A stretch of 64,000 nucleotides of DNA from Candidatus Saccharimonadales bacterium (GCA_035457485.1 DATIBO010000006.1:434659-498658), one strand, 5' to 3'. Positions 271-19,403 are shown, counted from the first letter of the stretch. The notes: generated by a model not told the origin, from the letters alone. Program-made: numbers and translations.

Positions 271-1194
271 ATGAAAATATTTATTATCAGCCCCAACGCC
301 GAAAGAATGTTTACCGAAGAGCACCGTAACGCCCTTAATGCTGTTGGTGGTGTAACCGTCTTTGGTGAGATAAAGCCCTTTGATCAACTTACAGAGTTAT
401 ATGATGGTGACGAACCGCGTATTGTAGCTGTTGACCCAGATTTTAGCGATTGGAAGTTTCCGAACGAGGTTATAGATAAAATACCCAGTCTAAAGGCGAT
501 CGTATTACAGACCACATCCTTTAGCTGGTTGGACATACAGTATGCCGCGAAGAAAGGTATACCTGTCGTCAATTTGCGGGGCTTTTCTAGTATTGCCGTC
601 GCTGAGTGGGTCGTGATGCTCACGCTTGCTTTGGCTCGACGCTTACCAGTCGTAGTGAAAGATGGCTGGAAGCTTGACTACGAAAAACATCGTGGCTTTG
701 AATTGCGTGGTAAAAAGGCAGGTGTGATTGGTCTTGGGCGCATCGGTACGGCGGTAGCCGAGAATCTAAAGGGTCTCGGCATGAACGTGCAGTATTGGTC
801 GAGAAACAGTGAAGACGAGCGTTTTGATAAGGTGGAGCTTGATGAGCTAATGCGTAGCTCGGATGTTATTGTATCGGCCGTAGCTCACAATGATGAGACA
901 GAAGGCTTGCTGAGCGATGAGGCGGTTAGATGCATGAAGCCAACGGCATTGTTGATAGACATCACTCACCCTATCTACAGCACCGAACTTGTTTTGCAAC
1001 TAGCTGCTGATGGTAAGATTGGTGGCTATGCGTTCGAGGACGAGAAGAACGCTTTCGGGCATTATGCTGGTAACGTGTGGAACGGTCCAGCACTCGGCTG
1101 GTGTACGAACGAGAGCATGAGTAAGAACGCTCAGCAATGGGTCGAGGCTATAGTTACTGCGGCTGGGGGTGAGTATCCAACGCGGGTAAATTAA
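271..1194 (+). CDS. D-isomer-specific 2-hydroxyacid dehydrogenase, NAD-binding
   Basis: 307-aa ORF with Rossmann motif GKKAGVIGLGRIGTAVAENLKGLG and family-typical layout. Confidence 0.85.
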   Translation: MKIFIISPNAERMFTEEHRNALNAVGGVTVFGEIKPFDQLTELYDGDEPRIVAVDPDFSDWKFPNEVIDKIPSLKAIVLQTTSFSWLDIQYAAKKGIPVVNLRGFSSIAVAEWVVMLTLALARRLPVVVKDGWKLDYEKHRGFELRGKKAGVIGLGRIGTAVAENLKGLGMNVQYWSRNSEDERFDKVELDELMRSSDVIVSAVAHNDETEGLLSDEAVRCMKPTALLIDITHPIYSTELVLQLAADGKIGGYAFEDEKNAFGHYAGNVWNGPALGWCTNESMSKNAQQWVEAIVTAAGGEYPTRVN

Positions 1195-1199
1195 CACCT

Positions 1200-1643
1200 A
1201 TGAATGACTACCTAAGGCAAGCTGTAAATCTATCCCGTAAATCATTTGAGGCCGGTGAGTTTCCGGCTGGTGCGATACTTGTTACTGAAGCTGGTAATGT
1301 GTACGAAAGCGACCCGTCTTTGCCGCATTATCACGGCGAGTGCATGGTTATAGATAAAGCTATTAGGGCCGAAGGCTACCCGCTTACTGGTGCAGTTATG
1401 TATGGCTCTATGGAATCTTGCCTGATGTGTTCGGCGAAAATGTATTGGGCTGGTATTACCGAAGTGCATTTTGTTATCCCTAAGGAAAAGACCAACACAC
1501 TCTATGCTTATGAGGACGATCTACCCATGCAAGGCCGCATTAAGCAGTTCAACACACCGATTACGGCCACACAAGACAGCGGCTTGCTTGATGAGGCACT
1601 AGGGCTGTACGAGGCTTGGGTTAAGAAGATTGAAAATAAGTAA
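1200..1643 (+). CDS. CMP/dCMP-type zinc deaminase family protein
   Basis: HGECMVI (H-x-E) and SCLMCSAKMYWAGI (C-x2-C) zinc-ligand motifs. Confidence 0.7.
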   Translation: MNDYLRQAVNLSRKSFEAGEFPAGAILVTEAGNVYESDPSLPHYHGECMVIDKAIRAEGYPLTGAVMYGSMESCLMCSAKMYWAGITEVHFVIPKEKTNTLYAYEDDLPMQGRIKQFNTPITATQDSGLLDEALGLYEAWVKKIENK

Positions 1644-1645
1644 AC

Positions 1646-2257
1646 ATGCCAGCGCGTAAGTACCTTAGCCCCGAAGACCTACACGAAAACAAAATAGTCT
1701 ACCTCTCGCCGGGCCACGCACCCGGTATGGTTACGACAATCGGCCCAGCCGGTAATGTGAATGTAGCAACCTTTGAGCAAACTATGATTGTTTCGTACCG
1801 CCCACCCCGCGTAATGATCGCTATCTCGCCCAAGTGCGACACACACAAGAACATTCAGGACGGTAGCGATTGCGTGGTTGGTTTTCCGCGCCCGGAGTAT
1901 ATCCAAGTTGCGTATGATGGTGGGGTCAAAACTCCCCGTGACATATCGGAGCTTGATGTAATTGAAAACATTTCCACCTTTGCGTCTAAGCTGGTTACTC
2001 CGCCCTCACTTGACCAATGCTGGATTAACATGGAGTGCAAGCTCAAAAGCATAACACCCGCTGGCGACCATGACCTTGTACTGCTCGATGTAGTTAGCGT
2101 TGCGTTAGACGAAGATGTATGGCGTGATGACAAGGTGGAGCGCCGAAATAATTTGCCAGCCGTATACTACACAACGTCCGGGCATTTTTTCGTGCCGGGC
2201 GAACGTATGCACGTCAGTCTAAGCGAAGATTTGAAGAAGTACGATAACGGCGATTAG
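1646..2257 (+). CDS. flavin reductase-like (FMN-binding split-barrel) protein
   Basis: 203-aa ORF. N-terminal VNVATF...S..PP and C-terminal GDHDLVLLDVVSV pattern are typical of the flavin reductase-like domain. Confidence 0.55.
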   Translation: MPARKYLSPEDLHENKIVYLSPGHAPGMVTTIGPAGNVNVATFEQTMIVSYRPPRVMIAISPKCDTHKNIQDGSDCVVGFPRPEYIQVAYDGGVKTPRDISELDVIENISTFASKLVTPPSLDQCWINMECKLKSITPAGDHDLVLLDVVSVALDEDVWRDDKVERRNNLPAVYYTTSGHFFVPGERMHVSLSEDLKKYDNGD

Positions 2258-2273
2258 GTAGTAAAATGTAGCT

Positions 2274-2792
2274 ATGGAAACGCAGCTAGACATTACCGAA
2301 AATACCGTACTTCGCATGATTAGTGAGCCAAACCTCGGAACGGATGCAACCGGCCACTTCAGGAAACATGACGACATAGCGGCGGAGCTGGGCGAAACCA
2401 ACGAGTCCCTCCAACCAATTATCGACAAGTTATTGGCCCAAAAACTTATACGTACCGTTAATGATAAGTTCGAGCAGATACACAGACACGCTCTTGAATA
2501 TACCGCTTACCAGATCACGGAGTTAGGCAAAAGCCACATGCAACAAAACAGCCACCCCGTACCAACTATTTATAGCAACATCAACGGCTCGAACATTGCC
2601 CACAATTCATCAAATGTTACGCAGACGATTTCAGCAAGCAACATGCCGCCTGATATACAGGAAAAGATTAAAGAGTTCGACGCAGCCGTGAAGCAAAAAG
2701 ACGCCTCAGCCATGAAACGGATATTTGGCTACATTGCAGATAAAACCGTTGACGTGGCAATCGCATTAGTAACGGGGACATTGGTGCGTTAG
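2274..2792 (+). CDS. hypothetical protein, possible winged-helix N-terminal half
   Basis: 172-aa ORF. The LQPIIDKLLAQKLIRTV...YQITELGKSH segment looks wHTH-like. The Asn/Ser-rich motif NGSNIAHNSSNVTQT is shared with the next ORF. Confidence 0.4.
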   Translation: METQLDITENTVLRMISEPNLGTDATGHFRKHDDIAAELGETNESLQPIIDKLLAQKLIRTVNDKFEQIHRHALEYTAYQITELGKSHMQQNSHPVPTIYSNINGSNIAHNSSNVTQTISASNMPPDIQEKIKEFDAAVKQKDASAMKRIFGYIADKTVDVAIALVTGTLVR

Positions 2793-2793
2793 C

Positions 2794-3027
2794 ATGGACG
2801 ACTTAACCAAGAAGACGGATGACGAGCTGCGGGATATTATGCGTACAAGCATTGCGAACTCGTATGTTCCGCAGTCTATACACAATAGAGCAAAACAGGA
2901 GCTAGAGTTCAGGATGCAGCAAAGACCAACCTACAACCTGACTAATTCCAATCTATCCATTAACTCCACGAATGTTAGCCAGTCTACTGAAGTAATCAAT
3001 GAGCCGAAACAGGGTTCAACAGAGTAG
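2794..3027 (+). CDS. hypothetical small protein
   Basis: 77-aa ORF starting 2 nt after the previous stop. Shares motif NSNLSINSTNVSQS with the upstream ORF. Confidence 0.35.
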   Translation: MDDLTKKTDDELRDIMRTSIANSYVPQSIHNRAKQELEFRMQQRPTYNLTNSNLSINSTNVSQSTEVINEPKQGSTE

Positions 3028-3049
3028 CCTATACCTGTAAAATATAGGC

Positions 3050-3895
3050 ATGTCCGACGTGCTGCATATTTTTGATATAGATAAGCAATTAGCAAGGCTA
3101 AAACATGCCAACACACAAGGAAGCAGTTTGGCCAATAGTATTCAGGCGTGGTCTAAAGCAAGTTTAAGCACTACGCCCATAATAAATTCGGACAGAAAAG
3201 GTTGGGCGTTACGATTGGACGTTGCCAAGCCACCACCCTTTGATGATTGGAGCCTTATTTTAAGTGATGCCACCAATCAACTCAGAAGTGCATTGGATAA
3301 TCTCGTGTTCTCTGTGCTTACGCCACTACCTAGCTCTGGTGCGGCTAAAAACGAGAAGCTAATCAAGTTTCCGATTGCGTCATCGGCTAAAGAATGGAAG
3401 AGCGCTAAAGTCTCAATAGAGCATTTGCCAGTTGAGTACCGTGATCGTATTGAACAATGGCAGCCATTTCAAAGACTCAGCAAGGGCGGAAATCTGGAAG
3501 AGGACGGCTTGGTATGGTTACAGCGGTTAAGCAACGTCGATAAGCACGCCTTACAAGTTGAGCCATTGATAAGCACCTCTGAGATGAATCACGAGTTTGC
3601 TCTTGAGTTTGTAACCCTAGAGGACGCAGGTATCAGCTTGCCGCCCCAAGTCGAAGTGATTAACCCTAAATTTGAAGACGGGGCATTACTCATGCGGCAG
3701 TTGACGGCGGGAAAAATTCAGTCAGTTAAGGGCAATTACCATGTTAAGGCACGGGTTCTGGTTAATCTTGAGGGCGGTCAGTACGGTATTACTGAGCTTC
3801 TGGCGAACATCTGGGAATATACGGCCGTAACTATGCAATATGTAACTGGCATTGCCGATGACGAATGGAAGCGTTGGTATTCAAGCGTTACGTAG
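3050..3895 (+). CDS. hypothetical protein
   Basis: 281-aa ORF with native composition. No motif recognised beyond RLSNVDKHAL. Confidence 0.45.
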   Translation: MSDVLHIFDIDKQLARLKHANTQGSSLANSIQAWSKASLSTTPIINSDRKGWALRLDVAKPPPFDDWSLILSDATNQLRSALDNLVFSVLTPLPSSGAAKNEKLIKFPIASSAKEWKSAKVSIEHLPVEYRDRIEQWQPFQRLSKGGNLEEDGLVWLQRLSNVDKHALQVEPLISTSEMNHEFALEFVTLEDAGISLPPQVEVINPKFEDGALLMRQLTAGKIQSVKGNYHVKARVLVNLEGGQYGITELLANIWEYTAVTMQYVTGIADDEWKRWYSSVT

Positions 3896-4098
3896 GGTCT
3901 GGGTTATCGGCCAAAGACCTTTTTGGTCGCTCGTTGTAATATTGGCACTCTCTAGCTTGAAGTGCTAATGCTAGAGTATAATGTGCATGGAGCTACTCCG
4001 CTAGGACTTTGACATACCGAAGATTGTGAACACAGGCCAGGCAGACTGCAAATAGCAGTTAGCTGGTATGTCGGCCAGTTTAATCAGGAAACAAACAT

Positions 4099-4275
4099 AT
4101 GGCAAAGCCAGCGTTTAGACCTGGACAAACAGCTCTCAAATCGGGACAGTACGAGCGGATCAACCGTGTCGGCAACCCGACTGGGAAAGAGGTGACGGTT
4201 ACGCGGGGTGAACCCCTGCCGCCAACACCAAAAAAAGGCCAGACTTTTCGCTTAGTTGATCCGACTAAGCACTGA
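4099..4275 (+). CDS. YjzC-like small protein
   Basis: 58-aa ORF not in the track (below its length cutoff): MAKPAFRPGQTALKSGQYERINRVGNPTGKEVTVTRGEPLPPTPKKGQTFRLVDPTKH. The GQ..SG.Y......G....EVT...GE.LPPTP..GQ.F.LV pattern is typical of the YjzC family. Confidence 0.55.
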   Translation: MAKPAFRPGQTALKSGQYERINRVGNPTGKEVTVTRGEPLPPTPKKGQTFRLVDPTKH

Positions 4276-4468
4276 CCTTTTTAAGCACTAGGAGTAGCTT
4301 CACTAAGTATCATAGCATAAGCATTATCCGTAAGTGTGAATACCACCACTCACTTGATTAGTAAAAACTTCTGGTAGGGTACTTCTAAGATCGTCCTCCA
4401 TCGGTTGTATTCTTCTCTGATAAAGTGAAAACTTTTTTCCACTTGCTGCACCATAAATGAACCAACAT

Positions 4469-4490
4469 AGACGGATATAACCGTCTTTTT
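4469..4490 (+). terminator. rho-independent terminator-like hairpin
   Basis: AGACGG-atataa-CCGTCT followed by TTTTT. Confidence 0.5.
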
Positions 4491-4510
4491 GTTATGTTAC
4501 AATCAGTCTA

Positions 4511-4990
4511 ATGAACATTCATTTTATATGTCGAGGCAATGTCCTAAGGAGCCTTATAGCCGAGACGTATTTGAGGTCTTTAGGTGTTGATGGGGTCGAA
4601 GTTATATCTAGTGGTACAAACGTTAATTGGAGCGATCCTCAGGAACGGGAGTATTTTGCCAATACGCTATCCGTCCTAGGCGGACATGGAATTAAACCAT
4701 ACGCAAAATCGAACGCAGAACAATTAACCCAAGAACGTATAGATAGCTGCCATGACATTATTGTTTTGATGAATCAAAGGGTTGTTGATGAAGCGACAAA
4801 AATCGTCCAACTGCCGGACAACTTTTTTAACTGGGATATTATTGATATTGGTGAGGGTCATCGCACTAATGTCGACAGCCATAAATTATATGAAGAAGAG
4901 ATATATCAAGAGATTACGCATAAAGTCGATTCTTTAATAGAAAGTATGAATTATAACTCTATCGACGACGATTTAGTTAGTTCGCAGTAA
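4511..4990 (+). CDS. low-molecular-weight protein-tyrosine phosphatase / arsenate reductase family
   Basis: N-terminal P-loop ICRGNVLRS (C-x5-R-S). Confidence 0.8.
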   Translation: MNIHFICRGNVLRSLIAETYLRSLGVDGVEVISSGTNVNWSDPQEREYFANTLSVLGGHGIKPYAKSNAEQLTQERIDSCHDIIVLMNQRVVDEATKIVQLPDNFFNWDIIDIGEGHRTNVDSHKLYEEEIYQEITHKVDSLIESMNYNSIDDDLVSSQ

Positions 4991-5456
4991 TTACAAACGG
5001 ACAAATCTTAACGTGGTCGCGCAGCTGGTCGATACCGCTTAATAGCTTATCCTTGGATATCTTGATAATCTTACCGTCCCAAGGGTCGAAGACCTCATAA
5101 AATTTTTCAGTAGCTTTTGTAACCATCATAAAATGAGGAAGGTGCGTCCAGCCATCGGTAATGTTGTTATCAACATAAACAATAAAAGGTGCGGTTAAAG
5201 AGTTGAGGAGTTTATCGTCATTCTTTTTGTGGAGCATATTAATGCGTGGATTGTTAACCCATTTCTTTAATTTCCCAAGGTAGAAGTTATTATCTACGTA
5301 GATTGTTGCCGATTTGTCTTTATAACGGTCAAGGAAAGCTAAAAGGCATCCAAATGTATAATTTTCACGGAGGCGGAAAAGTCCTTCACTAAGAATGCTC
5401 TGTTCTTTCTCGCGAGTTGGCTCAATATCAAATAGGTACATCAAATCAACGACCAA
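4977..5456 (-). CDS. papain-fold (C39-like) cysteine peptidase domain protein
   Basis: 159-aa ORF. Candidate Cys-His-Asp triad in ENYTFGCLLAFL, LPHFMMVTK and VFDPWDG. Overlaps the 3' end of the PTP gene by 14 nt. Confidence 0.4.
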   Translation of the reverse strand: MVVDLMYLFDIEPTREKEQSILSEGLFRLRENYTFGCLLAFLDRYKDKSATIYVDNNFYLGKLKKWVNNPRINMLHKKNDDKLLNSLTAPFIVYVDNNITDGWTHLPHFMMVTKATEKFYEVFDPWDGKIIKISKDKLLSGIDQLRDHVKICPFVITAN

Positions 5457-5612
5457 ACAGCCTTGATACTTTGTTGTTTATAATCCATGTTTAGCATTGT
5501 AGGTTTTTATATATTTATTAACAAGACTTAGTAGGGATATTATGAGCGCTTTTTTATGATAGGTATCCAGGTAAGTTAGCAAATTCTGTAGCTCTACTCC
5601 AAAAGATCATTC

Positions 5613-5632
5613 GGACGCTTCGGCGTCCTTTT
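5613..5632 (+). terminator. orphan rho-independent terminator
   Basis: GGACGC-ttcg-GCGTCC followed by TTTT. There is no plus-strand CDS upstream. Confidence 0.5.
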
Positions 5633-5687
5633 CATTTAACTTAAGTGCTAAAATTGAAGTGGGCATAACTTAAAAATAGGAGTATAC

Positions 5688-6068
5688 ATGGCTAAATATG
5701 TTGATGGGTTCGTTCTTGTAATTCCTAAGGGCAAGCAAGCTGAATATGAAGAAATGGCTAAAATGGGCCGTGATTCCTGGATGAAGCATGGGGCGCTTCA
5801 GTATTTTGAGTGCAGAGGTGAAGATCTTAAACAGCAAGAAATGAATGGTCAGAAATCTCGAGCTTTTAAAGAGATGGCGGGTGCAAATGATGATGAAAAT
5901 GTTTGGTTTTCTTTTATTGTTTTTAAATCCAAAGAGCACCGTGACGAAGTAAACAAAAAAGTCATGGACGAAATGGGCGAAACTTACAAAGACCAGGCGG
6001 ATTTTGAAATGCCTAACGATATGACAAAAATGGCTTACGGAGGTTTTGAAGTGATGGTTGAGGGTTAG
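5688..6068 (+). CDS. DUF1428 family protein
   Basis: MAKYVDGFVLVIPKGK...EYEEMA...WMKHGALQYFEC is typical of DUF1428 (YbaA-like). Confidence 0.75.
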   Translation: MAKYVDGFVLVIPKGKQAEYEEMAKMGRDSWMKHGALQYFECRGEDLKQQEMNGQKSRAFKEMAGANDDENVWFSFIVFKSKEHRDEVNKKVMDEMGETYKDQADFEMPNDMTKMAYGGFEVMVEG

Positions 6069-6131
6069 CTCGGGAGTATTGCGGAACCAACAACGCTTGG
6101 TTGCTTTTAGGCAAAAGTATATATTGGAAGT

Positions 6132-8264
6132 ATGACCACAAAATTCGCTACTTCAAAACTGGAGCATGATATGACTTACACTTGCCCAATGCACCCAGAA
6201 ATTCAGCAAAAGAATCCAGGTTTATGTCCTGAGTGCGGAATGAATTTGGTTCCCGCAAAAAAGACCGTTGTTAATAAGCATGATGTGGTCGACAAACACG
6301 CCGGTCATTCCCCGAATATGTTTAAGCAAAAGTTTTTGCTGAGTTTGATCTTGACGATTCCTACCGTAGTGTTTTCTACGTCGGTGCAAAGTTGGTTTGG
6401 TTATAGCTGGACTTTTTGGGGTAGTGGCTACATTCCAGCAATCTTCGGCGCGATTATCTTTTTTTACGGCGGACTTATATTTCTGAAAGGCGCTAAGGTA
6501 GAGTTGGCTGCTCGGCGACCTGGTATGATGACGCTTATTTCCATGGCAATCACCGTGGCTTTTGGCTATAGTTTAGCATCAACACTTGGGCTTGTGTCGG
6601 GGGTAGATTTTTGGTGGGAATTGGCTACGCTGGTAACTATCATGCTACTCGGCCACTGGTTGGAGATGGCTTCGGTAATGGGTGCGCAAGGGGCACTTAA
6701 AGAGCTCGCTAAATTGCTTCCGGATGAGGCCGAACTGATTATTGACGGTAAGTCCAAAAAAGTTCCTATTAGTGAACTAAGCGTTGGCGATGTGCTACTG
6801 GTGCGGCCTGGGTCGCAGATTCCGGTTGATGGTGTAGTGGTCAAGGGTGAGTCCGATGTAAACGAGGCAATGTTAACTGGCGAATCTAAACCTGTTAAAA
6901 AAACAGTTAAAGAACAAGTGATTGGCGGTACGACCAACGGCAGTGGTTCGCTGACGGTGCGAGTCACTAAGGTCGGCGATAGCACAGTGCTCGCAGGCAT
7001 TATGAAGCTAGTAGCTGATGCACAGGCTAGTAAGTCGCACACTCAAATATTAGCCGACCGAGCGGCATTTTATCTGACGTTTGCTGCCATTGCAGCGGCT
7101 CTTGTTACTGGAGTGGCGTGGACGATTGCTGGGCAATCTGCCGAGTTTATTTTGGAGCGTATCGTAACTGTTCTTGTGATCGCCTGTCCGCACGCCTTGG
7201 GTTTGGCGGTGCCATTAGTCACGGCTATATCGACTACCTTGGCAGCGCGCAATGGTCTGCTCGTTCGTCAGCGTGAGGCTCTTGAAGCTGCTCGCAATGT
7301 AGATGTGATTTTGTTTGATAAAACAGGAACATTAACAAAGGGTGAACAAGGTGTAGTCGATGTTGTTACTATCGAAAAAGAGACGGAACTGTTGATGCTA
7401 GCGGCGGTAGTCGAAGCTGACTCGGAGCACTCCATCGCACGCGCTATTGTTGCCTCGGCCAAGGAGCGCAAAATACCTATCCACCAAGCAACCGACTTTT
7501 CGGCTCTGCCAGGCCGCGGTGCGAAAGCTAACGTTAACGGCAAAGCTACATATGTTGGCGGCCCGCGCTTAATAAAAGAACTAAACGTAGTTTTGCCAGA
7601 TACTTTAGGCCAAGCTGCAAGAGAAGCATCTCAGCAAGGCAAAACCGTAGTTTACGTAATTCAGAATAAGCGCGTACTCGGAGTTGTAATGCTCGCTGAC
7701 GTAATCCGCGACGAATCGCGAGAGGCTGTAGCTGCTTTGCAACGTATGGGCAAGCGAGTAGCCATGCTAACTGGTGATTCCAAAGGTGTGGCGTCGTGGG
7801 TCGCCAGTGAACTAGGTATTACTGAATACTTTGCCGAGGTTCTGCCAGATAGTAAGGTTGAAACGGTTAAACGCCTACAGGCAGACGGCAGTCTAGTGGC
7901 AATGGTTGGCGACGGGGTGAATGATGCTCCAGCATTGACCAGGGCAGATATAGGCATCGCAATTGGCGCCGGTACCGATGTTGCAATCGAGTCTGCGGGT
8001 ATTGTTTTGGCATCTAGCGATCCGCGTGGCGTAGCCAAAATACTTATATTGTCCAAATCTACTTATCGTAAAATGCTTCAGAACCTATTGTGGGCGGCCG
8101 GCTACAACGTAATCGCTATTCCATTGGCTGCGGGCGTTGCGGCAACACTAGGTTTTGTACTATCACCAGCGCTTGGAGCTGTCTTGATGTCACTGTCTAC
8201 TATTATCGTAGCGAGCAATGCCCAACTACTACGAAACCTAGATCTCAATAGAGGGTTACGCTAG
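6132..8264 (+). CDS. copB: heavy-metal (copper) translocating P1B-type ATPase, CPH (CopB-like) subtype
   Basis: DKTGTLT, GDGVNDAPAL and TGES motifs. Transmembrane CPH motif (VIACPHALG). N-terminal CPMHPE...PGLCPECGM metal-binding module. Confidence 0.9.
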   Translation: MTTKFATSKLEHDMTYTCPMHPEIQQKNPGLCPECGMNLVPAKKTVVNKHDVVDKHAGHSPNMFKQKFLLSLILTIPTVVFSTSVQSWFGYSWTFWGSGYIPAIFGAIIFFYGGLIFLKGAKVELAARRPGMMTLISMAITVAFGYSLASTLGLVSGVDFWWELATLVTIMLLGHWLEMASVMGAQGALKELAKLLPDEAELIIDGKSKKVPISELSVGDVLLVRPGSQIPVDGVVVKGESDVNEAMLTGESKPVKKTVKEQVIGGTTNGSGSLTVRVTKVGDSTVLAGIMKLVADAQASKSHTQILADRAAFYLTFAAIAAALVTGVAWTIAGQSAEFILERIVTVLVIACPHALGLAVPLVTAISTTLAARNGLLVRQREALEAARNVDVILFDKTGTLTKGEQGVVDVVTIEKETELLMLAAVVEADSEHSIARAIVASAKERKIPIHQATDFSALPGRGAKANVNGKATYVGGPRLIKELNVVLPDTLGQAAREASQQGKTVVYVIQNKRVLGVVMLADVIRDESREAVAALQRMGKRVAMLTGDSKGVASWVASELGITEYFAEVLPDSKVETVKRLQADGSLVAMVGDGVNDAPALTRADIGIAIGAGTDVAIESAGIVLASSDPRGVAKILILSKSTYRKMLQNLLWAAGYNVIAIPLAAGVAATLGFVLSPALGAVLMSLSTIIVASNAQLLRNLDLNRGLR

Positions 8265-8285
8265 CATCAGGAATAAGGAGTTTTA

Positions 8286-9032
8286 ATGAAGCGATTTGAG
8301 AATAAAAAAGTGTTAATCACTGGTGGAAGCCGCGGTTTAGGTGCTGCAACAGCCAAAAGGTTCGCCCAAGAGGGTGCCGATATCGTTATCAATTACACTG
8401 AACAAAAAGAGGCTGCCGAAGCTGTCGCGCATGAAATTAAATCCTTGGGCGGCAAGGTTATATTGATTCAGGCAGATGTAGGCAACGAGCACAGTGTTAA
8501 AGCAATGGCGGCTAAGGTTGTCGAGCAAGTTGGTTCTGTTGATATTTTGGTGAATAACGCTGGGATAGTTTTTGATGTGCCATTTGACCAAAAAAGTACA
8601 GATCAGTGGCGTCGTACAATGGATGTTAATCTGAACGGGGTTTACTATTGTACAAAATATTTCATGTCACACATCAGTCGAGGCGGCAGTATTGTGAATG
8701 TCGCGTCGACCAACGGTATCGACACATATCACCCCGATTCGATTGACTATGACGTTAGTAAGGCAGGAGTCATAATGTTCACTAAAGCTATGGCCCGTGA
8801 TTTAGCGCCAGACATTAGAATTAACTGTGTTGCGCCGGGCTGGTTCGATACTGATATAAATGCTGATTTGCCCGAGGATTATGTAAAAAAAGAGTCAGAA
8901 AAAATTGCAATGGGAAGGTTTGGTGATCCCAACGAAATAGCCAGCGTTGTTGCATTTTTAGCAAGTGAAGATGCCAGCTTTATGACCGGTTCGGTTGTTG
9001 TAGTCGACGGTGGTTATGGAGGAGCCGTTTAA
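8286..9032 (+). CDS. SDR family oxidoreductase (FabG-like)
   Basis: TGGSRGLGAA cofactor motif, NNAG, and Y-x3-K (YDVSKAG). Confidence 0.85.
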   Translation: MKRFENKKVLITGGSRGLGAATAKRFAQEGADIVINYTEQKEAAEAVAHEIKSLGGKVILIQADVGNEHSVKAMAAKVVEQVGSVDILVNNAGIVFDVPFDQKSTDQWRRTMDVNLNGVYYCTKYFMSHISRGGSIVNVASTNGIDTYHPDSIDYDVSKAGVIMFTKAMARDLAPDIRINCVAPGWFDTDINADLPEDYVKKESEKIAMGRFGDPNEIASVVAFLASEDASFMTGSVVVVDGGYGGAV

Positions 9033-9096
9033 ACTCGGTCGAAAGTGCCCAGCAATCTGGGGATCGTTGCAGAAGGTCAAGTGGTATTATATTACC

Positions 9097-9125
9097 TTGA
9101 CAGTCATAGTAAAACGATATACACT
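9097..9125 (+). promoter_or_regulatory. sigma70-like promoter giving a leaderless padR transcript
   Basis: TTGACA (9097-9102), N17, TACACT (9120-9125), then 7 nt to the ATG at 9133. No SD sequence. Confidence 0.45.
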
Positions 9126-9132
9126 GTATCTC

Positions 9133-9462
9133 ATGATACATAAAACACTTTCTTCGGACTTGCTTCGCGGCCATACGGATACGATTATCCTAAAGCTGCT
9201 TTTGCAGGGCGATAAATACGGCTACGAGATTACAAAGTTGGTCAGCGATCTCAGTGATCATCTTTATGAACTTAAAGAGGCAACCATGTACTCCAGCTTA
9301 AAACGACTCGAAAACGATGGGCAGATAATCTCTTATTGGGGTGACGAAACACAAGGTGGGCGACGCAAATATTATCGGATTACAAATCGAGGCCGCGATC
9401 TTTATCAAACTAATAAACAAAACTGGGATTTTTCTAAAGAAATTTTAGAAAAGTTGCTTTAA
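9133..9462 (+). CDS. PadR family transcriptional regulator
   Basis: LRGHTDTIILKLLLQGDKYGYEI...YSSLKRLENDG...RKYYRIT. Start moved to the ATG at 9133; the track start at 9010 adds a non-homologous extension overlapping the SDR gene. Confidence 0.85.
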   Translation: MIHKTLSSDLLRGHTDTIILKLLLQGDKYGYEITKLVSDLSDHLYELKEATMYSSLKRLENDGQIISYWGDETQGGRRKYYRITNRGRDLYQTNKQNWDFSKEILEKLL

Positions 9463-9471
9463 GGAGATTAT

Positions 9472-10290
9472 ATGGAAGACAAACTAAAGAATTTTTTAAA
9501 TGAAGCTTTTAAGCCCTACGGCGATTTTCCGGCGCGCAAAGACGTCGAACAGGAGCTTCTTGCCAACTTGAATGAACGTTATAAGGACTATAAGGCACAA
9601 GGTAGGACCGATGAAGTTGCCTACAATTTAACGGTTGAATCACTTGGTGACGTTGCTGAAATCATGGAGCAAATTGAGCACGAAAAAGATGGCAAAACGA
9701 TTCGCGAGACGATCGTAGACGTTGTTAAGAGCGCATTTGGTGACGGCGATCAAAGATTCCACGCAACATCTCTAATCGAAACCGACCTATCCGAAACTAG
9801 CTTGCCAAGCACGGATTTTAGCGCCAGCGCGTTAATGAAGACTAAGTTTGATAAAGCGGATTTGCGGAATTCCAAATTCAAAGCCGCTGCATTAAAAGGT
9901 GCAAGTTTTATTGGCGCAAACTTGAGCGGGGCAACTTTTAATACTGCCGATTTACAGGACACCGACTTTAGCGGAGCTAACTTAACGAATGCGAAAATTG
10001 TCAGTTGCAATTTAAAAGGCTCGTCATTTAAGGACGCGATTTTAGATGGTACCGAATTTAAAACGACTGACCTAGAAAACATGCCTTTTGACGGACTCAA
10101 GTTTAACGGCACGAAATTTGTTTCGGCTGGCCTTAGGAATGCCACATTCAATAGAGCTATTTTGCAGGATGTTTCTTTTAAGCACACCAAGGTCAAACAG
10201 ATAAACTTTAGTGGTGCAACAATGGATAAAGTGACCTACGCTTTGCTAAAAGGCGTTAATGCTGATCTGCAAAACGTAACTGTTAGATAA
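9472..10290 (+). CDS. pentapeptide-repeat protein with PadR-associated (DUF1700-like) N-terminal domain
   Basis: The C-terminal half is tandem A(D/N)LxG-type pentapeptides (ADLRNSKFKAAALKGASFIGANLSGATFNTADLQDTDFSGANLTNAKI...). Confidence 0.8.
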   Translation: MEDKLKNFLNEAFKPYGDFPARKDVEQELLANLNERYKDYKAQGRTDEVAYNLTVESLGDVAEIMEQIEHEKDGKTIRETIVDVVKSAFGDGDQRFHATSLIETDLSETSLPSTDFSASALMKTKFDKADLRNSKFKAAALKGASFIGANLSGATFNTADLQDTDFSGANLTNAKIVSCNLKGSSFKDAILDGTEFKTTDLENMPFDGLKFNGTKFVSAGLRNATFNRAILQDVSFKHTKVKQINFSGATMDKVTYALLKGVNADLQNVTVR

Positions 10291-10301
10291 TTTTGGGGGA
10301 T

Positions 10302-10339
10302 GTGCCCGGGACCTGCGACGAATCGCTTGTCCCGGGCAC
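10302..10339 (-). terminator. GC-rich hairpin after lipoprotein gene, no U tract
   Basis: GTGCCCGGGAC-16 nt-GTCCCGGGCAC, an 11-bp stem lying 5 nt past the stop. Confidence 0.5.
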
Positions 10340-10343
10340 GCAC

Positions 10344-10988
10344 TTACTGTGGTTTCGCGCAGTCGCCGACCGGGCGGGTGGTGTGAGCGGCCATGGCTGC
10401 ACCTCGGTTGATCGCCTTGATCGACTCGGGCGTCAGCTTTTGGTACCGCTTGAGATCGTCGGTCAGCTCAGCCAGCTTCGCAGCTTCCTTGACCGTGATC
10501 CAGGCCGCGGCACAGTTCGCCGCAGGGGCGAACTCCCACTTGATCATCCCGGCTTGCAGGACCAGCTGGAACCAGATCACACTGCCGGGCAGTTTGATGG
10601 TATCCAGTTCGGTTCGAGTGGTCACCAGGTAGAGCGTCTTGTCATTCTCGGTGATGCACTCACCGAGGAATGGCATGTCACCGGTGATCGTGGTCACGAC
10701 CGTGCCGTTCACGCAGGTCTGCGTGTCGTTGAGGTTCATAAACCTGATCTCGAACTTGAGGTCCAGGTAGGTCTTGGCGACCTCGAGTACCTCGACGGCC
10801 GAGACGTTGTTGCCACCCAGCTTCATGTCACTGGGCGGAACCTCGCCCCCACTTCCGCCGCCGTTGACACTGGCCGAAGCCGTAGGCTTGGCGGTGCTCG
10901 GCGTGACGTTGGGCGTGCAGCCGGTCGCCAGAACGACGACCGCAGCTACTGCCAGCCCGAGCGCAGGCCACTTCGGTGCTACGTTCAC
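10344..10988 (-). CDS. putative lipoprotein, high-GC (actinobacterial-style) gene
   Basis: GTG start preceded by AAGGAGGA. Signal peptide plus lipobox ...AVVVLATGC. GC-rich third positions. The opposite-strand 250-aa ORF has antisense-type composition. Confidence 0.7.
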   Translation of the reverse strand: MNVAPKWPALGLAVAAVVVLATGCTPNVTPSTAKPTASASVNGGGSGGEVPPSDMKLGGNNVSAVEVLEVAKTYLDLKFEIRFMNLNDTQTCVNGTVVTTITGDMPFLGECITENDKTLYLVTTRTELDTIKLPGSVIWFQLVLQAGMIKWEFAPAANCAAAWITVKEAAKLAELTDDLKRYQKLTPESIKAINRGAAMAAHTTRPVGDCAKPQ

Positions 10989-11059
10989 CAGTCCTCCTTA
11001 AAGGCTTGGGACTATTGGCCGATCACTCGACCGGCCGTCCACTGATGTACTGGAGCGAA

Positions 11060-11088
11060 ATTATAACATATAATCTTTATCTTGTAAA
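11060..11088 (-). promoter_or_regulatory. sigma70-like promoter abutting island 1
   Basis: Minus strand: TTTACA (11088..11083), N17, TGT-TATAAT (11065..11060), ending at the AT-to-GC junction. Confidence 0.45.
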
Positions 11089-11126
11089 TAAAAAATACGC
11101 TGTGCAGTTCACAAATTTGTAATTTT

Positions 11127-12119
11127 TTACTTTGCATCGGCTAGCTCAATGGCTTGTTGTGAACTGCCCCACGAAAGAATCACGCCATTGCCACCGTGGC
11201 CGTAGTTGTGGATTATTTTTTTGTCGTCAATTTGCTCACATTCAACTCGCGGTCCGCCAGATCGTATTGGTCTAAAACCCGACATAGCTCCAATAATATT
11301 TTGTTTTTTTAAGGTGCCCGTTGTTAAACTAAACGGATGGCCGGCATGCTCTAGTGCCTGTGCTATTCCGTTAAAAACGTATTCTTTCTCGGCGGAAGTT
11401 ATCGTTAAATCAAAGTTGTCCTTTATGTAAGAGGCGCCGATGTAGGTCTCATTTTTGCGCGGCGCAATTATGTGATCGTCAAATGATAGTACGTGATTTA
11501 AACCCTGGGTTGGCTTTAGGCGGAGAATCACACCTTTTACAGGCATTAAAGATTCATCGCTAAAGATTGACGCACCACAGCCGAGGCAGTTAAAAACCGT
11601 ACTTTGGGGTAAGTTTAAGATCTGTCGCTTGTTTACGAATGTTTTTTGTCTTAGTTTGCCACCCATGGCTACAAATTTTTTGCCGAGTCGCGGCAAGTAA
11701 GCAAGAGGATTAATCATTATGGTTTCGAAACTGAGCATATGGGTATAGCCAAGTGGTAAGTTCGCACGCTTAGTGATTTTAAGGTTAGGTAATACGTCAA
11801 AAAAGTATGATGGCACAAAGCCGCTTCTCGCCAGTTCATAGTTTTGAATTTTTGTAATGTCATGAGCCGGGTTGGATATTTCGCTAAATCTTTTGTGTGA
11901 ATACAAGAACCATTTTTTTAGAGTTTTTTCAAAGCTGTGGTCAATACCGTCGCCAAGCCAAATTGGATAAAATTGTGCTCCTGCAACATGACTGACTAAG
12001 TTGGTAAAATCACTGGCATAAATTGTTACGTCTGCTTTCGGAAATTTTTCGAGCAACAGTACGCCGGTTGTAAGTCCAATAACCCCCGACCCTAAAATTG
12101 CAAAGTTTCTACCTTTCAT
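11127..12119 (-). CDS. D-amino-acid oxidase family FAD-dependent oxidoreductase
   Basis: N-terminal ILGSGVIGLTTG dinucleotide fold and C-terminal HNYGHGGNGVILSWGS signature. Confidence 0.75.
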   Translation of the reverse strand: MKGRNFAILGSGVIGLTTGVLLLEKFPKADVTIYASDFTNLVSHVAGAQFYPIWLGDGIDHSFEKTLKKWFLYSHKRFSEISNPAHDITKIQNYELARSGFVPSYFFDVLPNLKITKRANLPLGYTHMLSFETIMINPLAYLPRLGKKFVAMGGKLRQKTFVNKRQILNLPQSTVFNCLGCGASIFSDESLMPVKGVILRLKPTQGLNHVLSFDDHIIAPRKNETYIGASYIKDNFDLTITSAEKEYVFNGIAQALEHAGHPFSLTTGTLKKQNIIGAMSGFRPIRSGGPRVECEQIDDKKIIHNYGHGGNGVILSWGSSQQAIELADAK

Positions 12120-12706
12120 TTTAATGAAAACACAAGCTCTAAAAATATATTGTCGGTCATATCTTGTCGCTTTGTTGTTGTAAAAGTTAGCGTTTGGTCG
12201 AGTTTAAAACCGTGTTTTTTAAAATATTCAGCTTGAACGTTGGCTAGGGGCCAGCTTTCTGCATTGCGGTTGGCAATATCGGTACTGTCTATGATCAGTT
12301 TGCCGTCGCTTGTCAACATGCTTTTAAGGGCCGTCGCAATTTTAGTCAATGGATATTCGTTTTTAAACCAAGTAAAAGGAAGGCTAGTGTAGATGTAGTT
12401 GTACTTGTCGGATTCGGCTTTAGTAAAGTCACCTAAAATTACGTTGCTGTTTTTGGCTTCACGAACTGCGATATTGTATTGATGCGAGTCTATCTCTATT
12501 CCGTCGCATGACCCACCGATCTGAGTAATAACGCGCGGTATAGTCCCAACGCCGCAGGCCGGATCGATTCCGCGCAAGCCACCGTGATTTAAGCCGAGTT
12601 TTTTTGCGGTGATTTTGATAACCTCATCCGGAACAATAAAAAGCGGATTTGATTTTGTGTCTTTTGGAATATGTGCCTTGCCTTCGATAATATACATGGG
12701 ATACAT
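12116..12706 (-). CDS. class I SAM-dependent methyltransferase (possible nucleic-acid N-methylase)
   Basis: Motif I GIDPACGVGT. Possible motif IV YTSLPF. Confidence 0.6.
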   Translation of the reverse strand: MYPMYIIEGKAHIPKDTKSNPLFIVPDEVIKITAKKLGLNHGGLRGIDPACGVGTIPRVITQIGGSCDGIEIDSHQYNIAVREAKNSNVILGDFTKAESDKYNYIYTSLPFTWFKNEYPLTKIATALKSMLTSDGKLIIDSTDIANRNAESWPLANVQAEYFKKHGFKLDQTLTFTTTKRQDMTDNIFLELVFSLK

Positions 12707-12747
12707 AGACTATAGATAGAACGCAAGGCCATGTTAAACTGTCTCTG

Positions 12748-13545
12748 ATGTCTGACAACAACGACAAAATAGTTAGAATGATGAAGCAGTACGGTTTGTC
12801 CAGTGCCGAAGCTGTTATTTACATCGAACTTTTGAGCGGCCCATCAACTCATTTAAAGTTGAGCCGAAGAACAGGAATTACAAGAAGTCGTGTTTATCAC
12901 GTTGTAGAACTTTTAGAGAAACGTGGTCTAGCGGTTAAGTTTATGGATGACACAGGCTCTTTTGTTAAGGCTAGCGATCCTAACAATTTTGAAATTGAAC
13001 TGACCGCGCAAGAGCAGAAGCTAAAAGAGCGACGAGAGTTGCTGAATGAACTTATCCCAGAGTTATTGTCGGTTCAAAAAAATGATTCAGGATTGTTTTC
13101 GGTCAAGGCTTATGAAGGCGAATCCGGGTTTAGGCAAATGGCCTGGCACGAACTAAAGGCAAAAAATGAAATTCTATGTTTTGGCTACGCCGAAGTAGAA
13201 GTGTTAATTAATGACCACCGATGGTCGGAGTTGCATCGCCAAATGACAGTTGAGGCTGGATACAAGATTCGTGAGATTGTAAATTATGATTCTAAGAGTA
13301 GTATTAGATCTTTCACTGCCAACGACGAGTATTTAAAGAGGTACGAGTGTAGGGCAATTCCTAAAGAGACGGTATCGTTGAGTAATCAGATTGTAATTTA
13401 CAATAACGTTGTTAATACTTATCACTGGCGTGAAGGTGTGCAGATTGGTGTTGAAATAATCAGTGATAGTTATTCTCAAACTATGAGGGCGGTTTTTGAG
13501 CAGTTCTGGGGTTTGGCTGAGCCGGTGGAGATCACTAAAGAATAA
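12748..13545 (+). CDS. TrmB family transcriptional regulator
   Basis: N-terminal HTH GLSSAEAVIYIELLSGPSTHLKLSRRTGITRSRVYHVVELLEKRGL. Confidence 0.8.
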   Translation: MSDNNDKIVRMMKQYGLSSAEAVIYIELLSGPSTHLKLSRRTGITRSRVYHVVELLEKRGLAVKFMDDTGSFVKASDPNNFEIELTAQEQKLKERRELLNELIPELLSVQKNDSGLFSVKAYEGESGFRQMAWHELKAKNEILCFGYAEVEVLINDHRWSELHRQMTVEAGYKIREIVNYDSKSSIRSFTANDEYLKRYECRAIPKETVSLSNQIVIYNNVVNTYHWREGVQIGVEIISDSYSQTMRAVFEQFWGLAEPVEITKE

Positions 13546-13586
13546 TCTGTTCAGATCGGGTAATGATCTGTATAATTGTATTGCAT

Positions 13587-13660
13587 GGCACGTTGGCCGA
13601 GGAGTTAGGCAAGGGTCTGCAAAACCCTGTACACCGGTGCGACTCCGGTACGTGCCTCCA
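13587..13660 (+). tRNA. tRNA-Cys (GCA), CCA encoded, atypical T-loop
   Basis: Acceptor GGCACGT/ACGTGCC. Anticodon arm AGGGT-CTGCAAA-ACCCT. T arm ACCGG-TGCGACT-CCGGT. TATAAT at 13571-13576. Confidence 0.8.
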
Positions 13661-13691
13661 GGTGATAATTTTAATTGCGGTTTCGCGTTGG

Positions 13692-13735
13692 CGTCCCGCC
13701 ACTATACGGGTTTCGTATAGTGGCGGGACGTTTTT
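13692..13735 (+). terminator. rho-independent terminator after tRNA-Cys
   Basis: 16-bp stem CGTCCCGCCACTATAC / GTATAGTGGCGGGACG, 7-nt loop, then TTTTT. The T run overlaps the stop of the convergent lipoprotein gene. Confidence 0.65.
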
Positions 13736-14277
13736 CAGTTTCGGCTCCGGCTGGCGGTTGGGGCCTGCGTGCTGCTGGTCGAGACCGACGGCAGCGTGAG
13801 CGGCGACTTGAGCAGGCTGTTGCTGAACGTCAGCCACTCATTGCGGAAGAGCTTCTTCGCTTCCGACAGATCCTTGTCGGGGTAGTAGGTCGCGAAGTAG
13901 TCCTCGAACATCGCCTCCTCGGCCGAGCTCGTCTTGAGCCGGCCGCCCGTGAACTGGTTCAGCAGGTACCCGAGCCCGAAGTTCGTCTTGTCCGTCTTGT
14001 TGGACGCGTCGAACTTCTTGGTCAGGTCGACCTGGATCCACTCGCTCTTGCCGATCGGCTCACCGTCCCACTCAGAGCCCTCGCAGGCGTTCGAGCCGGG
14101 AACGTGCGCGCAGTACGCATGAACCTCGTCCACACCGTTCTGGTCGACGTCGGTCGACCAGAGGAAGGTGCGGGTGGTGTCGTTGGTCGGCTGCACGCCA
14201 CAGGCGGCGACCCCCATGCTGAGGATGGCCGCGAAGGCGACCACCAGCGCCTTGAGCCGGTTGCTGATCGGAGACAC
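13735..14277 (-). CDS. putative lipoprotein, high-GC gene
   Basis: GTG start with GAGGA upstream. Signal peptide plus lipobox ...ILSMGVAAC. GC-rich third positions. Confidence 0.7.
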   Translation of the reverse strand: MSPISNRLKALVVAFAAILSMGVAACGVQPTNDTTRTFLWSTDVDQNGVDEVHAYCAHVPGSNACEGSEWDGEPIGKSEWIQVDLTKKFDASNKTDKTNFGLGYLLNQFTGGRLKTSSAEEAMFEDYFATYYPDKDLSEAKKLFRNEWLTFSNSLLKSPLTLPSVSTSSTQAPTASRSRN

Positions 14278-14302
14278 TTGGTGTCCTCGTTTCGTAATTG
14301 AG

Positions 14303-14323
14303 GTCCCGCGACTTTAGCGGGAC
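14303..14323 (-). other. GC-rich hairpin in the 5' UTR of the island 2 gene
   Basis: GTCCCGC-gacttta-GCGGGAC. The stem core matches the hairpin at 13692-13730. Confidence 0.5.
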
Positions 14324-14337
14324 GCACGCAAATATAA

Positions 14338-14493: not shown

Positions 14494-14512
14494 TGAACTT
14501 ATTAAGGCTAAA

Positions 14513-17391: not shown

Positions 17392-19403
17392 ACAAAACAC
17401 AAGCATCTGATCGAATTCATAAACTTCGGGATCTCATAAACGAGTATCGATACGAGTATCACGTAAACAACCGCTCAATTATGAGCGAGGCAGCCGCAGA
17501 TGGTTTAAAGCACGAGCTTGCTGAACTAGAAGGTGAATTTCCGGATCTTGTAACGCCTGATTCACCAACTCAGCGCGTGGCCGGCGAGCCGCTGCCACAA
17601 TTTGTTAGTGCAGAGCACAAGTATCCGATGCTCAGTTTGAATGACGTTTTTGATCAAGGGGAGGTATCGGCCTGGGAGGCTAGAATCCAAAAATTAGTTC
17701 CTGGTCAAAAATTAGAATACTTTGCTGATATTAAAATGGACGGTTTAGCGTGCTCGCTGGTTTACCAAAACGGCATTTTAGTTAGGGCGCTAACCAGGGG
17801 CAATGGACGAGTCGGCGAGGATGTAACCGCAAACTTAAGAACGCTTGAATCCGTTCCGTTAAAACTTAATAAATCCGCTCAAACAACTACTTTTGAGCAA
17901 GGTTACACAGAAGTTCGGGGCGAAATCGTCATGTATAAATCTGACTTTGAGGCTCTTAACGAACAGCGTGCAAAAGCTGGATTGCCACTTTTTGCCAATC
18001 CACGAAACTTGGCCGCGGGTACCGTGCGTCAACTCGATCCAAAGTTAGTTGTCGGGCGCCCACTTAAATTTAGAGCTTGGGATCTAAGACGCGATGATTC
18101 TAGTGAGGTTCCTACCAATGAGTTTTGCTACGAAATATTAGCTAAACTTGGTTTTTTGGTTAACGATCAGGCCGAGCTTGTAGGCAGCGTGACGGACGTA
18201 ATGAAGTTTGCTAAAAAATGGGAAGAAAAACGCCTAAGACTGCCGTTTAATACAGACGGCTTGGTGGTAAAAGTAAACGACCGCGCGGTTTTTGAAAAAC
18301 TTGGGGTAGTGGGTAAAGCTCCTCGCGGAGCAGTCGCTTATAAATATCCAGCCGAGCAGGCAACCACAAAGGTTAAGGACATTTTTGTGAGCATTGGTCG
18401 AACTGGCGCGGCAACGCCGGTGGCAGTTTTAGAACCTGTAGTCGTCGCTGGATCAACAGTGCAAATGGCAACTTTGCATAACGAGGGCGAAGTTAAACGC
18501 AAGGATGTAAGGGTTGGAGATACTGTAATTATTCACAAGGCTGGCGATATCATCCCTGAGGTAGTAGAGGTTTTAAAAACGCTCCGTACCGGTAAGGAAC
18601 AACCTTTTGAAATGCCAAAAAAATGTCCGGAATGTGGTAGTGACCTAAAAAAAGAAGATGCCGAAGCTGTGTGGCGCTGCCTAAATTACGCCTGTCCAGC
18701 TCGAGTTCACAACCAGATCCAACATTACACCAGTAAATCAGCTTTAGATATTGAGGGTATGGGCGAAAAGAACGTTTTGGCTCTCCTGGATGCAAATTTG
18801 ATTCGCGACCCGGCAGATTTATATACATTGACCAAGGATCAGTTGCTGAAGCTTGATAGGTTTGCAGAGATTTCGGCTAGCAAATTAATTGACGCGATTG
18901 CCGTAAAAAAGCATCCGAGCCTGAGCCATTTTATTTATGCTCTAGGAATAAGGCACGTTGGCGCGCAGACTGCGGTAGATTTAAGCAATAAATTTGGTAA
19001 CCTAGATAGCTTAAGCAGCGCAACGATTGATGAGCTGAGACAAGTTGAAGGTGTTGGTGAGGTTGTGGCCGAGAGTATTATGACGTGGTTTGCAAGCGCC
19101 CAGAACCAGCAGTTGTTGGCGAAGTTTGCAAACGCTGGCGTAGAACCGATGGAAGTAAAACGCGTGAACGGTGGTAAACTTCAGGGATTGGGTTTCGTGG
19201 TTTCTGGAACTCTGGAAACCATGGAGCGCGAACAAGCAGGCGACAAGATTCGACAGCTTGGCGGAACTTTTCAGTCGTCTGTTGGAAAAAACACAGACTA
19301 TTTGGTTTTAGGTGAAAATCCCGGTGCCTCTAAAGTCGCTAAAGCCGAAAAGCTGGGAACGCGAATTATCGACGAAAAAATGCTGCTAAAAATGCTACAA
19401 TAG
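17388..19403 (+). CDS. ligA: NAD-dependent DNA ligase
   Basis: KMDG adenylation motif, four-Cys zinc finger (CPECGS...CLNYACPA), HhH and C-terminal BRCT regions. Confidence 0.95.
   Translation: MNKTQASDRIHKLRDLINEYRYEYHVNNRSIMSEAAADGLKHELAELEGEFPDLVTPDSPTQRVAGEPLPQFVSAEHKYPMLSLNDVFDQGEVSAWEARIQKLVPGQKLEYFADIKMDGLACSLVYQNGILVRALTRGNGRVGEDVTANLRTLESVPLKLNKSAQTTTFEQGYTEVRGEIVMYKSDFEALNEQRAKAGLPLFANPRNLAAGTVRQLDPKLVVGRPLKFRAWDLRRDDSSEVPTNEFCYEILAKLGFLVNDQAELVGSVTDVMKFAKKWEEKRLRLPFNTDGLVVKVNDRAVFEKLGVVGKAPRGAVAYKYPAEQATTKVKDIFVSIGRTGAATPVAVLEPVVVAGSTVQMATLHNEGEVKRKDVRVGDTVIIHKAGDIIPEVVEVLKTLRTGKEQPFEMPKKCPECGSDLKKEDAEAVWRCLNYACPARVHNQIQHYTSKSALDIEGMGEKNVLALLDANLIRDPADLYTLTKDQLLKLDRFAEISASKLIDAIAVKKHPSLSHFIYALGIRHVGAQTAVDLSNKFGNLDSLSSATIDELRQVEGVGEVVAESIMTWFASAQNQQLLAKFANAGVEPMEVKRVNGGKLQGLGFVVSGTLETMEREQAGDKIRQLGGTFQSSVGKNTDYLVLGENPGASKVAKAEKLGTRIIDEKMLLKMLQ

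Follow-up and report, generated by a model that had tools for sequence, protein, structure and literature searches.

A stretch of 64,000 nucleotides from a Candidatus Saccharimonadales bacterium, a tiny parasite of soil type (GCA_035457485.1 DATIBO010000006.1:434659-498658), referred to here as the window, carries a short block of high G+C content that encodes one lipoprotein-like gene (insert A). The source is a metagenome-assembled genome (MAG) from the candidate phyla radiation (CPR), or Patescibacteria; the genome is ~0.89 Mb in size with ~44% G+C, and the window overall also has ~44% G+C. The block lies between the stops of two convergent genes, one for a pentapeptide-repeat protein and the other for an FAD oxidoreductase of the DAO (D-amino-acid oxidase) family. 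These neighbours had been named in an earlier, sequence-only reading of the DNA (convergent genes with stops at 10290 and 11127), and both were recovered by Pfam and by their coordinates. The positions of all features are collected in Table 1.

The high-GC block and its gene

How far does the block extend? Its limits were taken as maximum-likelihood change points, and its composition was judged by ranking among all 768-bp segments of the 64-kb stretch together with a fine composition profile. None of the 1265 segments is as G+C-rich as the block (window median 0.436, robust z 5.9), and local G+C inside it rises to 0.60-0.67. The sequence-only reading had described a high-GC block at 10291-11058 (GC 0.618). 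No segment of that length in the 64 kb is in fact richer, and the limits given were right to within four bases of the maximum-likelihood ones.

Which strand of the block is coding? There are two candidate open reading frames (ORFs), one of 214 aa on the minus strand and one of 250 aa on the plus strand. The minus-strand ORF has G+C contents of 0.59, 0.47 and 0.81 at the first, second and third codon positions (GC1/2/3), the periodicity of a genuine high-GC coding frame, and its GC3 compares with ~0.42 in neighbouring genes. A codon model was trained on 153 ORFs from Micromonosporaceae, with 38 native ORFs from the window as the contrasting set, the score being the log2 ratio per codon. The minus-strand ORF scored +0.46 and the antisense ORF -0.17, while native genes scored -1.57 +/- 0.27 and Micromonosporaceae genes +1.10 +/- 0.17. 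The codon usage of the focal ORF is therefore 7.5 standard deviations (sd) from that of native genes and is shifted toward actinomycete usage. On the basis of GC periodicity and codon score, the minus-strand ORF is a real gene and the plus-strand pattern is its mirror. The 250-aa ORF was accordingly rejected as a mirror artefact of a high-GC gene, and family searches in which the sister antisense ORF was tested gave no family for it. The minus-strand gene with a GTG start, as first proposed, is thus upheld, since its rival on the plus strand is no better supported by codon score or by GC1/2/3.

By base composition and codon usage, the block has the character of horizontally acquired DNA. Its junctions are found in a second, independent assembly: a Logan contig of 19.8 kb (run SRR25158331) is 100% identical to window positions 344..13633, a length of 13,290 bp, and crosses both junctions, which supports the view that they are real and not an artefact. 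The earlier proposal of a recent foreign insertion is therefore supported by codon usage, by GC3 and by the contiguity of the junctions.

The signals that would allow expression of the gene lie at the edges of the block. The sigma-70-like promoter, TTTACA-N17-TGT-TATAAT, had been placed at the AT-to-GC junction; it was found there, with its end 3 nt from the compositional boundary. Its spacer of 17 nt ends in TGT before the -10 element (an extended -10), and in a consensus scan it matches 11 of 12 positions plus the TG, making it the top-scoring site within 9000-15000. The predicted 5' untranslated region (UTR) has a fold of -24.9 kcal/mol that is modest only (z = -2.2), and it matches no Rfam family. 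The Shine-Dalgarno sequence AAGGAGGA reported ahead of the GTG start is present at 10999..10992 on the minus strand.

At the other end of the gene, the hairpin described as an 11-bp stem without a U tract after the stop is present: its 11 base pairs are all matched, a further helix of 4 bp lies inside them, and the arms can be extended to 17 nt. It folds at -31.9 kcal/mol (z = -5.8), a value that none of 200 shuffled sequences reached, and 11 nt separate it from the stop codon of the convergent pentapeptide-repeat gene. There is no U tract beside it on either strand, and a scan for canonical intrinsic terminators did not call it. U-less 'I-shaped' hairpins are a common terminator type in Actinobacteria, and the focal hairpin would fit this type.

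The N-terminus of the encoded protein, MNVAPKWPALGLAVAAVVVLATGC (residues 1-24), is predicted to be a lipoprotein signal. It comprises an n-region, MNVAPKW, with a single positive charge (K6), and a hydrophobic core, ALGLAVAAVVV. The sequence VAAVVVLATGC24 fits both the PROSITE PS51257-type lipobox pattern and the Gram-positive G+LPP pattern, so that, at the level of patterns, the signal peptide and lipobox (VVVLATGC) of the sequence-only reading appear sound. Among 1026 start/ORF combinations in the six frames of the window, the G+LPP pattern matches only the focal ORF and ORF 13735..14277, which belongs to another high-GC insert (B, see below); the PROSITE-type pattern adds one spurious antisense ORF, 18550..18828. 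Both genes with lipoprotein signal patterns in the 64 kb are thus foreign high-GC genes, and no native gene matches.

The predicted signal peptide is followed by the linker TPNVTPSTAKPTASASVNGGGSGGEVPP noted earlier, which is present in the translation and was modelled as low-confidence coil in both structure runs. The secondary structure predicted for the mature domain consists of a helix, strands and two C-terminal helices. The mature part had been credited with five further Cys residues; only four were counted.

Does the protein have relatives? Searches of Pfam, NCBIfam, PHROGs, PADLOC and PDB sequences gave no match to the 214-aa protein. A word-indexed search of 5.8 billion clusters and an exhaustive HMMER search of 1.84 billion representatives each returned the self match only, annotated as 'MAG TPA: hypothetical protein VLA77_02570 [Candidatus Saccharimonadales bacterium]' and located on a contig of 889,392 bp. 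Searches by tblastn of 50,697 phage records and of 72,556 plasmids were empty; nothing was found in JGI metagenome contigs and IMG/VR, and the window contains no paralog. Two weak candidates were rejected. A sub-threshold HMMER match (P0002) is a eukaryote-like repeat protein whose E-value comes from summed weak repeat matches. A PAS-like domain suggested by a multi-PAS kinase (P0003) had an E-value of 1e-3 from summed tandem-repeat scores, its best single domain reaching 14.2 bits (i-Evalue 2.7e3), and there is no Pfam PAS match. AlphaFold2 run without an alignment gave unusable models, with a predicted local distance difference test (pLDDT) score of 36.8 for residues 50-214 and 37.4 for residues 55-214. 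The earlier statement that no family can be assigned to the mature domain was right: family, sequence and PDB searches were empty and structure models unusable. The focal protein is a true orphan.

Table 1. Positions of the high-GC inserts of the window, the features of insert A and the genes on either side of it.
Feature	Position	Strand	Remarks
Pentapeptide-repeat gene	9472..10290	+	Pfam PF00805, 1.1e-29
Insert A: foreign high-GC segment with 5' UTR, ORF and hairpin	10295..11057	-	763 bp, GC 0.623
Antisense ORF	10293..11045	+	250 aa; GC1/2/3 0.77/0.48/0.61; negative codon score
Hairpin (inverted repeat I3)	10302..10339	-	4 nt past the stop codon; stems 10302-10312 and 10329-10339
ORF, orphan prolipoprotein	10344..10988	-	214 aa; GTG start; TAA stop at 10346..10344
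Mature domain	10347..10826	-	~160 aa; Cys92, Cys111, Cys159, Cys210; no family
Linker	10827..10916	-	Pro/Thr/Ser/Ala/Gly-rich; ~residues 25-54 (~30 residues)
Signal peptide and lipobox (predicted)	10917..10988	-	residues 1-23; L-A-T-G-C24
5' UTR (predicted)	10989..11053	-	GC-rich, ~65 nt; transcription start inferred; internal 8-bp hairpin
Sigma-70-like promoter, recipient type	11060..11088	-	in AT-rich DNA; TTTACA 11088..11083; TATAAT 11065..11060
FAD oxidoreductase gene, DAO family	11127..12119	-	PF01266, 6.6e-25
Insert B	~13690-14329		
Insert B ORF	13735..14277	-	180-aa orphan; GC3 0.92; lipobox MGVAAC26
Insert C	~31826-32800		weaker; GC 0.56-0.59
Insert C ORF	31864..33219	-	451-aa orphan
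Insert D	52784-53138		
Insert D ORF	52825..53082	+	85-aa DUF397 protein; Pfam 5e-25
Insert E	56672-57160		
Insert E ORF	56734..57135	-	133-aa orphan; antisense between two plus-strand genes

Other high-GC inserts in the window

Besides insert A, the window holds three small high-GC single-gene inserts (B, D and E) and a larger, less clear one (C). The four small inserts share a layout. In all four, a recipient-type -10 element lies within ~10 nt of the switch from AT-rich to GC-rich DNA (TGT-TATAAT, TGT-TAGAAT, TGT-AAAAAT and TATAAT in A, B, D and E, respectively). This is followed by a GC-rich leader with a Shine-Dalgarno sequence, one ORF, and a hairpin of -32 to -40 kcal/mol, and each insert lies tail to tail with a native gene or tRNA.

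Of these inserts, only D could be traced to a source. When genomes were scanned, one per species, 321 relatives of its DUF397 protein were confirmed, and the best 80 loci are all from Micromonosporaceae or unclassified Actinomycetota. The best match is from Catellatospora tritici, with 90% amino acid identity over residues 14-85 and 82.6% nucleotide identity in the coding sequence. Insert D has not been ameliorated, since its GC3 (0.88) is within the range of the actinomycete copies (0.78-0.96). Homology to the donors does not stop at their start codon but reaches further upstream, where the donor gene overlaps the one before it; the ATG of the donor is missing from insert D, whose protein begins instead with a new N-terminal extension served by a separate Shine-Dalgarno sequence. 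Insert D directly shows that this genome took a gene from a Micromonosporaceae-like actinomycete very recently, and it offers a clue to donor and host.

A DUF397 gene is also found on a contig from what is presumably a distant relative (L006, 13056-13316, minus strand), where it has native composition (GC 0.49 in a contig of 0.515). It is only 39% identical to insert D, while the DAO ortholog of this contig is 46% identical and lies in the same module of TrmB, methyltransferase and DAO genes. Acquisition of DUF397 genes in the group may thus be older or recurrent. In the literature, no mention was found of run SRR25158331 or of DUF397 in Saccharibacteria.

Insert B lies between the genes for tRNA-Cys (13587-13660) and tRNA-Leu (14406-14493), behind the promoter TTGTAA-N16-TAGAAT with TGT. 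Its lipoprotein shows no similarity to the focal one. The Logan contig ends at 13633 inside tRNA-Cys, just ahead of insert B, and Logan-derived sources lack the protein that it encodes; insert B may be polymorphic in the population, or the assembly graph may branch at the tRNA. In insert E, which has the same promoter-flush layout, the hairpin (-39.9 kcal/mol) lies 17 nt from the neighbour's stop. Insert C is near the gene for tRNA-Gln (30842-30917) and has no family and no plasmid match. Its layout differs in that the ORF is AT-rich in its 5' part and its ATG comes immediately after TATAAT.

Short words recur at the edges of these inserts. The sequence ATATGTTA(T/G)AATTT is found at 11058-11071 and at 14336-14349, in the -10 regions of inserts A and B (repeat D11), and TTTCGCTC is found just downstream of the -10 elements of inserts A and E (11046-11053 and 57153-57160). 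With only four inserts to compare, these shared 5'-junction words could be due to chance. Insert B is itself flanked by two hairpins, at 13692-13730 and 14302-14324, which have their stem base (CGTCCCGC / GCGGGACG) in common; ~3% of random junction pairs share a word of 8 or more nucleotides. The left hairpin, with its T tract, also reads as a canonical plus-strand terminator of tRNA-Cys.

Origin of the focal gene

Where did the focal gene come from, and is it expressed? Recent single-gene transfer from a high-GC actinomycete, with the gene now expressed as a surface-tethered lipoprotein, is the probable explanation. By analogy with its sister insert D, the donor of the focal cassette was most likely an actinomycete, probably of the host lineage.

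The steps of such a transfer can be outlined. Saccharibacteria are naturally competent epibionts of Actinobacteria (PMC10633639), which fits with DNA uptake, and Patescibacteria are known to have acquired genes by horizontal gene transfer (HGT), mostly from within the phylum (PMC12455944). DNA of a high-GC actinomycete, plausibly the lineage hosting the epibiont, would have entered via natural competence and been joined to an intergenic spacer by illegitimate recombination. Deletion bias and selection for expression would then trim inserts to promoter-proximal single genes. Transcription is predicted to start from the AT-rich recipient-type sigma-70 promoter, whose extended -10 abuts the foreign DNA, and to end at the U-less hairpin; translation would use the strong Shine-Dalgarno sequence and the GTG start.

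The 214-aa prolipoprotein would be exported by Sec, followed by diacylglycerylation of Cys24 by Lgt and removal of the signal peptide by LspA. Such processing is plausible because SPII-type (signal peptidase II) signal peptides are predicted in Saccharibacteria (PMC7427843). The ~160-aa domain would then be held at the external face of the membrane by its flexible linker of ~30 residues, and its four Cys residues could form two disulfides. It is a matter of speculation that this domain acts as a surface protein at the interface between epibiont and host.

Comparison with related genomes agrees with acquisition, though weakly. The nearest DAO orthologs with usable context come from three relatives, which keep a module of TrmB, methyltransferase, (2-hydroxyacid dehydrogenase) and DAO genes. 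The genes after DAO differ in each of the three, and none has the lipoprotein or any high-GC island; the three also lack the pentapeptide-repeat neighbour, and the absence of the lipoprotein is thus weak evidence. A genome scan with the DAO protein found no closer relative that might show an empty site, and a metagenome scan with the pentapeptide-repeat protein found one 37%-identical fragment only.

Several points weigh against recent transfer and expression of the focal gene. The donor is unproven because there is no homolog anywhere: among ~15 billion proteins, actinomycetes included, no relative of the focal protein was found, and with no homolog there is no evidence of selection on the gene. 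Its codon score is 3.8 sd under that of real Micromonosporaceae genes, which may reflect a less GC-rich donor or change after transfer. The spacing from AAGGAGGA to the GTG is 3 nt (CTG), which is rather short. In the 64-kb window there is no credible motif for lgt or lspA, the only matches being spurious ones in an antisense ORF and in the pentapeptide-repeat gene. Finally, the relatives used for synteny are distant (46-49% DAO identity).

The focal segment might instead be inert, freshly scavenged DNA, a by-product of uptake by a competent, nucleotide-scavenging epibiont, in which case the ORF would be intact through recency and have no function in the recipient. The lack of any sign of selection fits with this idea, as does the un-ameliorated state of insert D, which implies very recent arrivals, and the Logan break in tRNA-Cys beside insert B could reflect heterogeneity in the population. 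Against it counts the strong recipient-type -10 element that lies no more than 10 nt from the boundary, ahead of a Shine-Dalgarno sequence, in all four small inserts. The loss of the donor start codon in insert D, in favour of a new start preceded by its own Shine-Dalgarno sequence, looks like adaptation to expression, and trimming to one gene would be expected if useful DNA alone survives deletion bias. Inert DNA is thus an unlikely explanation, albeit one with some evidence in its favour.

It is likewise doubtful that the gene came from an actinophage, a plasmid, a mobile element or another high-GC phylum, and not from the chromosome of a host actinomycete. Small secreted or lipoprotein orphans are frequent in mobile elements, the focal protein stays an orphan when compared with hundreds of genomes of Micromonosporaceae, and it has an intermediate codon score; all three count in favour of another source. 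However, the tblastn searches of phage records and plasmids were empty, there is no PHROG family and no IMG/VR match, and a scan of the junctions and neighbouring genes found no integrase, no transposase and no target-site duplication above chance. In addition, the sole traceable insert (D) is chromosomal-type Micromonosporaceae DNA.

Could a dedicated mechanism have captured these genes, either a cassette system like that of integrons or the reverse transcription of host mRNAs? In the small inserts, a single ORF is framed by a 5' UTR and a hairpin; these inserts begin at the predicted transcription start and leave the promoter outside, as such a mechanism might produce. However, no attC core sites (GTTRRRY / RYYYAAC) occur in 10285-10350, so the focal segment does not qualify as an integron cassette, and the only attC-like core in the other inserts is a single GTTRRRY in insert E without a partner. 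There is no array, and no integrase family was found among the scanned neighbouring genes. The left hairpin of insert B resembles the native terminator of tRNA-Cys. In insert D, homology extends into the overlap with the donor's upstream gene, and the foreign DNA therefore did not begin at the donor transcription start; RNA-mediated capture was rejected by this alignment of insert D with its donors. A dedicated capture mechanism has no support from anything found here, and it is highly improbable.

Abrupt compositional steps in a MAG are a classic warning sign of foreign high-GC reads spliced into a contig, but an assembly chimera or contamination is very unlikely, to the point of being negligible, because the independent Logan assembly is identical across both junctions, and in addition the block is flanked by native sequence left and right, its limits fall at a promoter and at a neighbour's stop codon and not at random, and the same architecture is found in three further small inserts of the window.

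Comparison with known systems and significance

If the focal gene is a recent acquisition from an actinomycete, how does it compare with systems already described? In its predicted product it resembles the tethered lipoproteins of Actinobacteria and other monoderms, with a short positive n-region, a 13-residue core, a lipobox (LATG-C) at residue 24, a low-complexity linker and an even number of Cys residues in the exported part. It differs from them in that the mature domain has no sequence relative and the gene is found in a member of the Saccharimonadales, where lipidation is a prediction.

The HGT islands described in Patescibacteria (PMC12455944) also consist of compositionally deviant DNA in ultra-small genomes, in intergenic positions and partly beside tRNA genes. 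According to that study, transfers are mostly within the phylum, at 4-35% divergence, and few come from Actinomycetota (PMC12455944). By contrast, the inserts described here are single un-ameliorated genes, and the one donor that could be traced belongs to the Micromonosporaceae.

The SPII genes of Saccharibacteria are found in native arrays flanked by type IV secretion genes (PMC7427843). Like the focal gene, they encode predicted lipoproteins, which implies that the phylum handles such precursors; unlike them, the focal gene is foreign and stands alone, with a pentapeptide-repeat gene on one side and an oxidoreductase gene on the other. Finally, integron cassettes resemble the focal insert in having a single ORF without a source promoter of its own, an imperfect inverted repeat and a resident promoter. 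The focal insert lacks attC cores, an integrase, an array and a shared recombination site, and the resemblance is one of layout only.

Taken alone, the focal gene belongs to an ordinary category, the horizontally acquired orphan lipoprotein. The wider pattern of fresh high-GC single-gene inserts in an environmental member of the Saccharimonadales differs from the situation in the oral model strain TM7x, which showed no strong signal of host-derived genes (PMC7427843), even though cultivated Saccharibacteria have Actinobacteria as their hosts. One far-reaching proposal is that the focal cassette is a visible instance of extensive, continuing transfer of genes from a host in the Micromonosporaceae. 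Host genes, especially those for surface lipoproteins, would be captured singly and come under the control of epibiont promoters, and their products would be presented on the epibiont's surface so as to mimic the host envelope or to engage it. There is only a slim chance that this is so. If it were true, the density in the window, four to five inserts in 64 kb, could mean dozens of them in the genome as a whole; they would identify the uncultured host and bring to light a class of factors for interaction with it. Even without so broad a pattern, such inserts could mark the host identity of uncultured epibionts, and the two foreign lipoproteins of the window are concrete candidate surface factors at the interface between epibiont and host.

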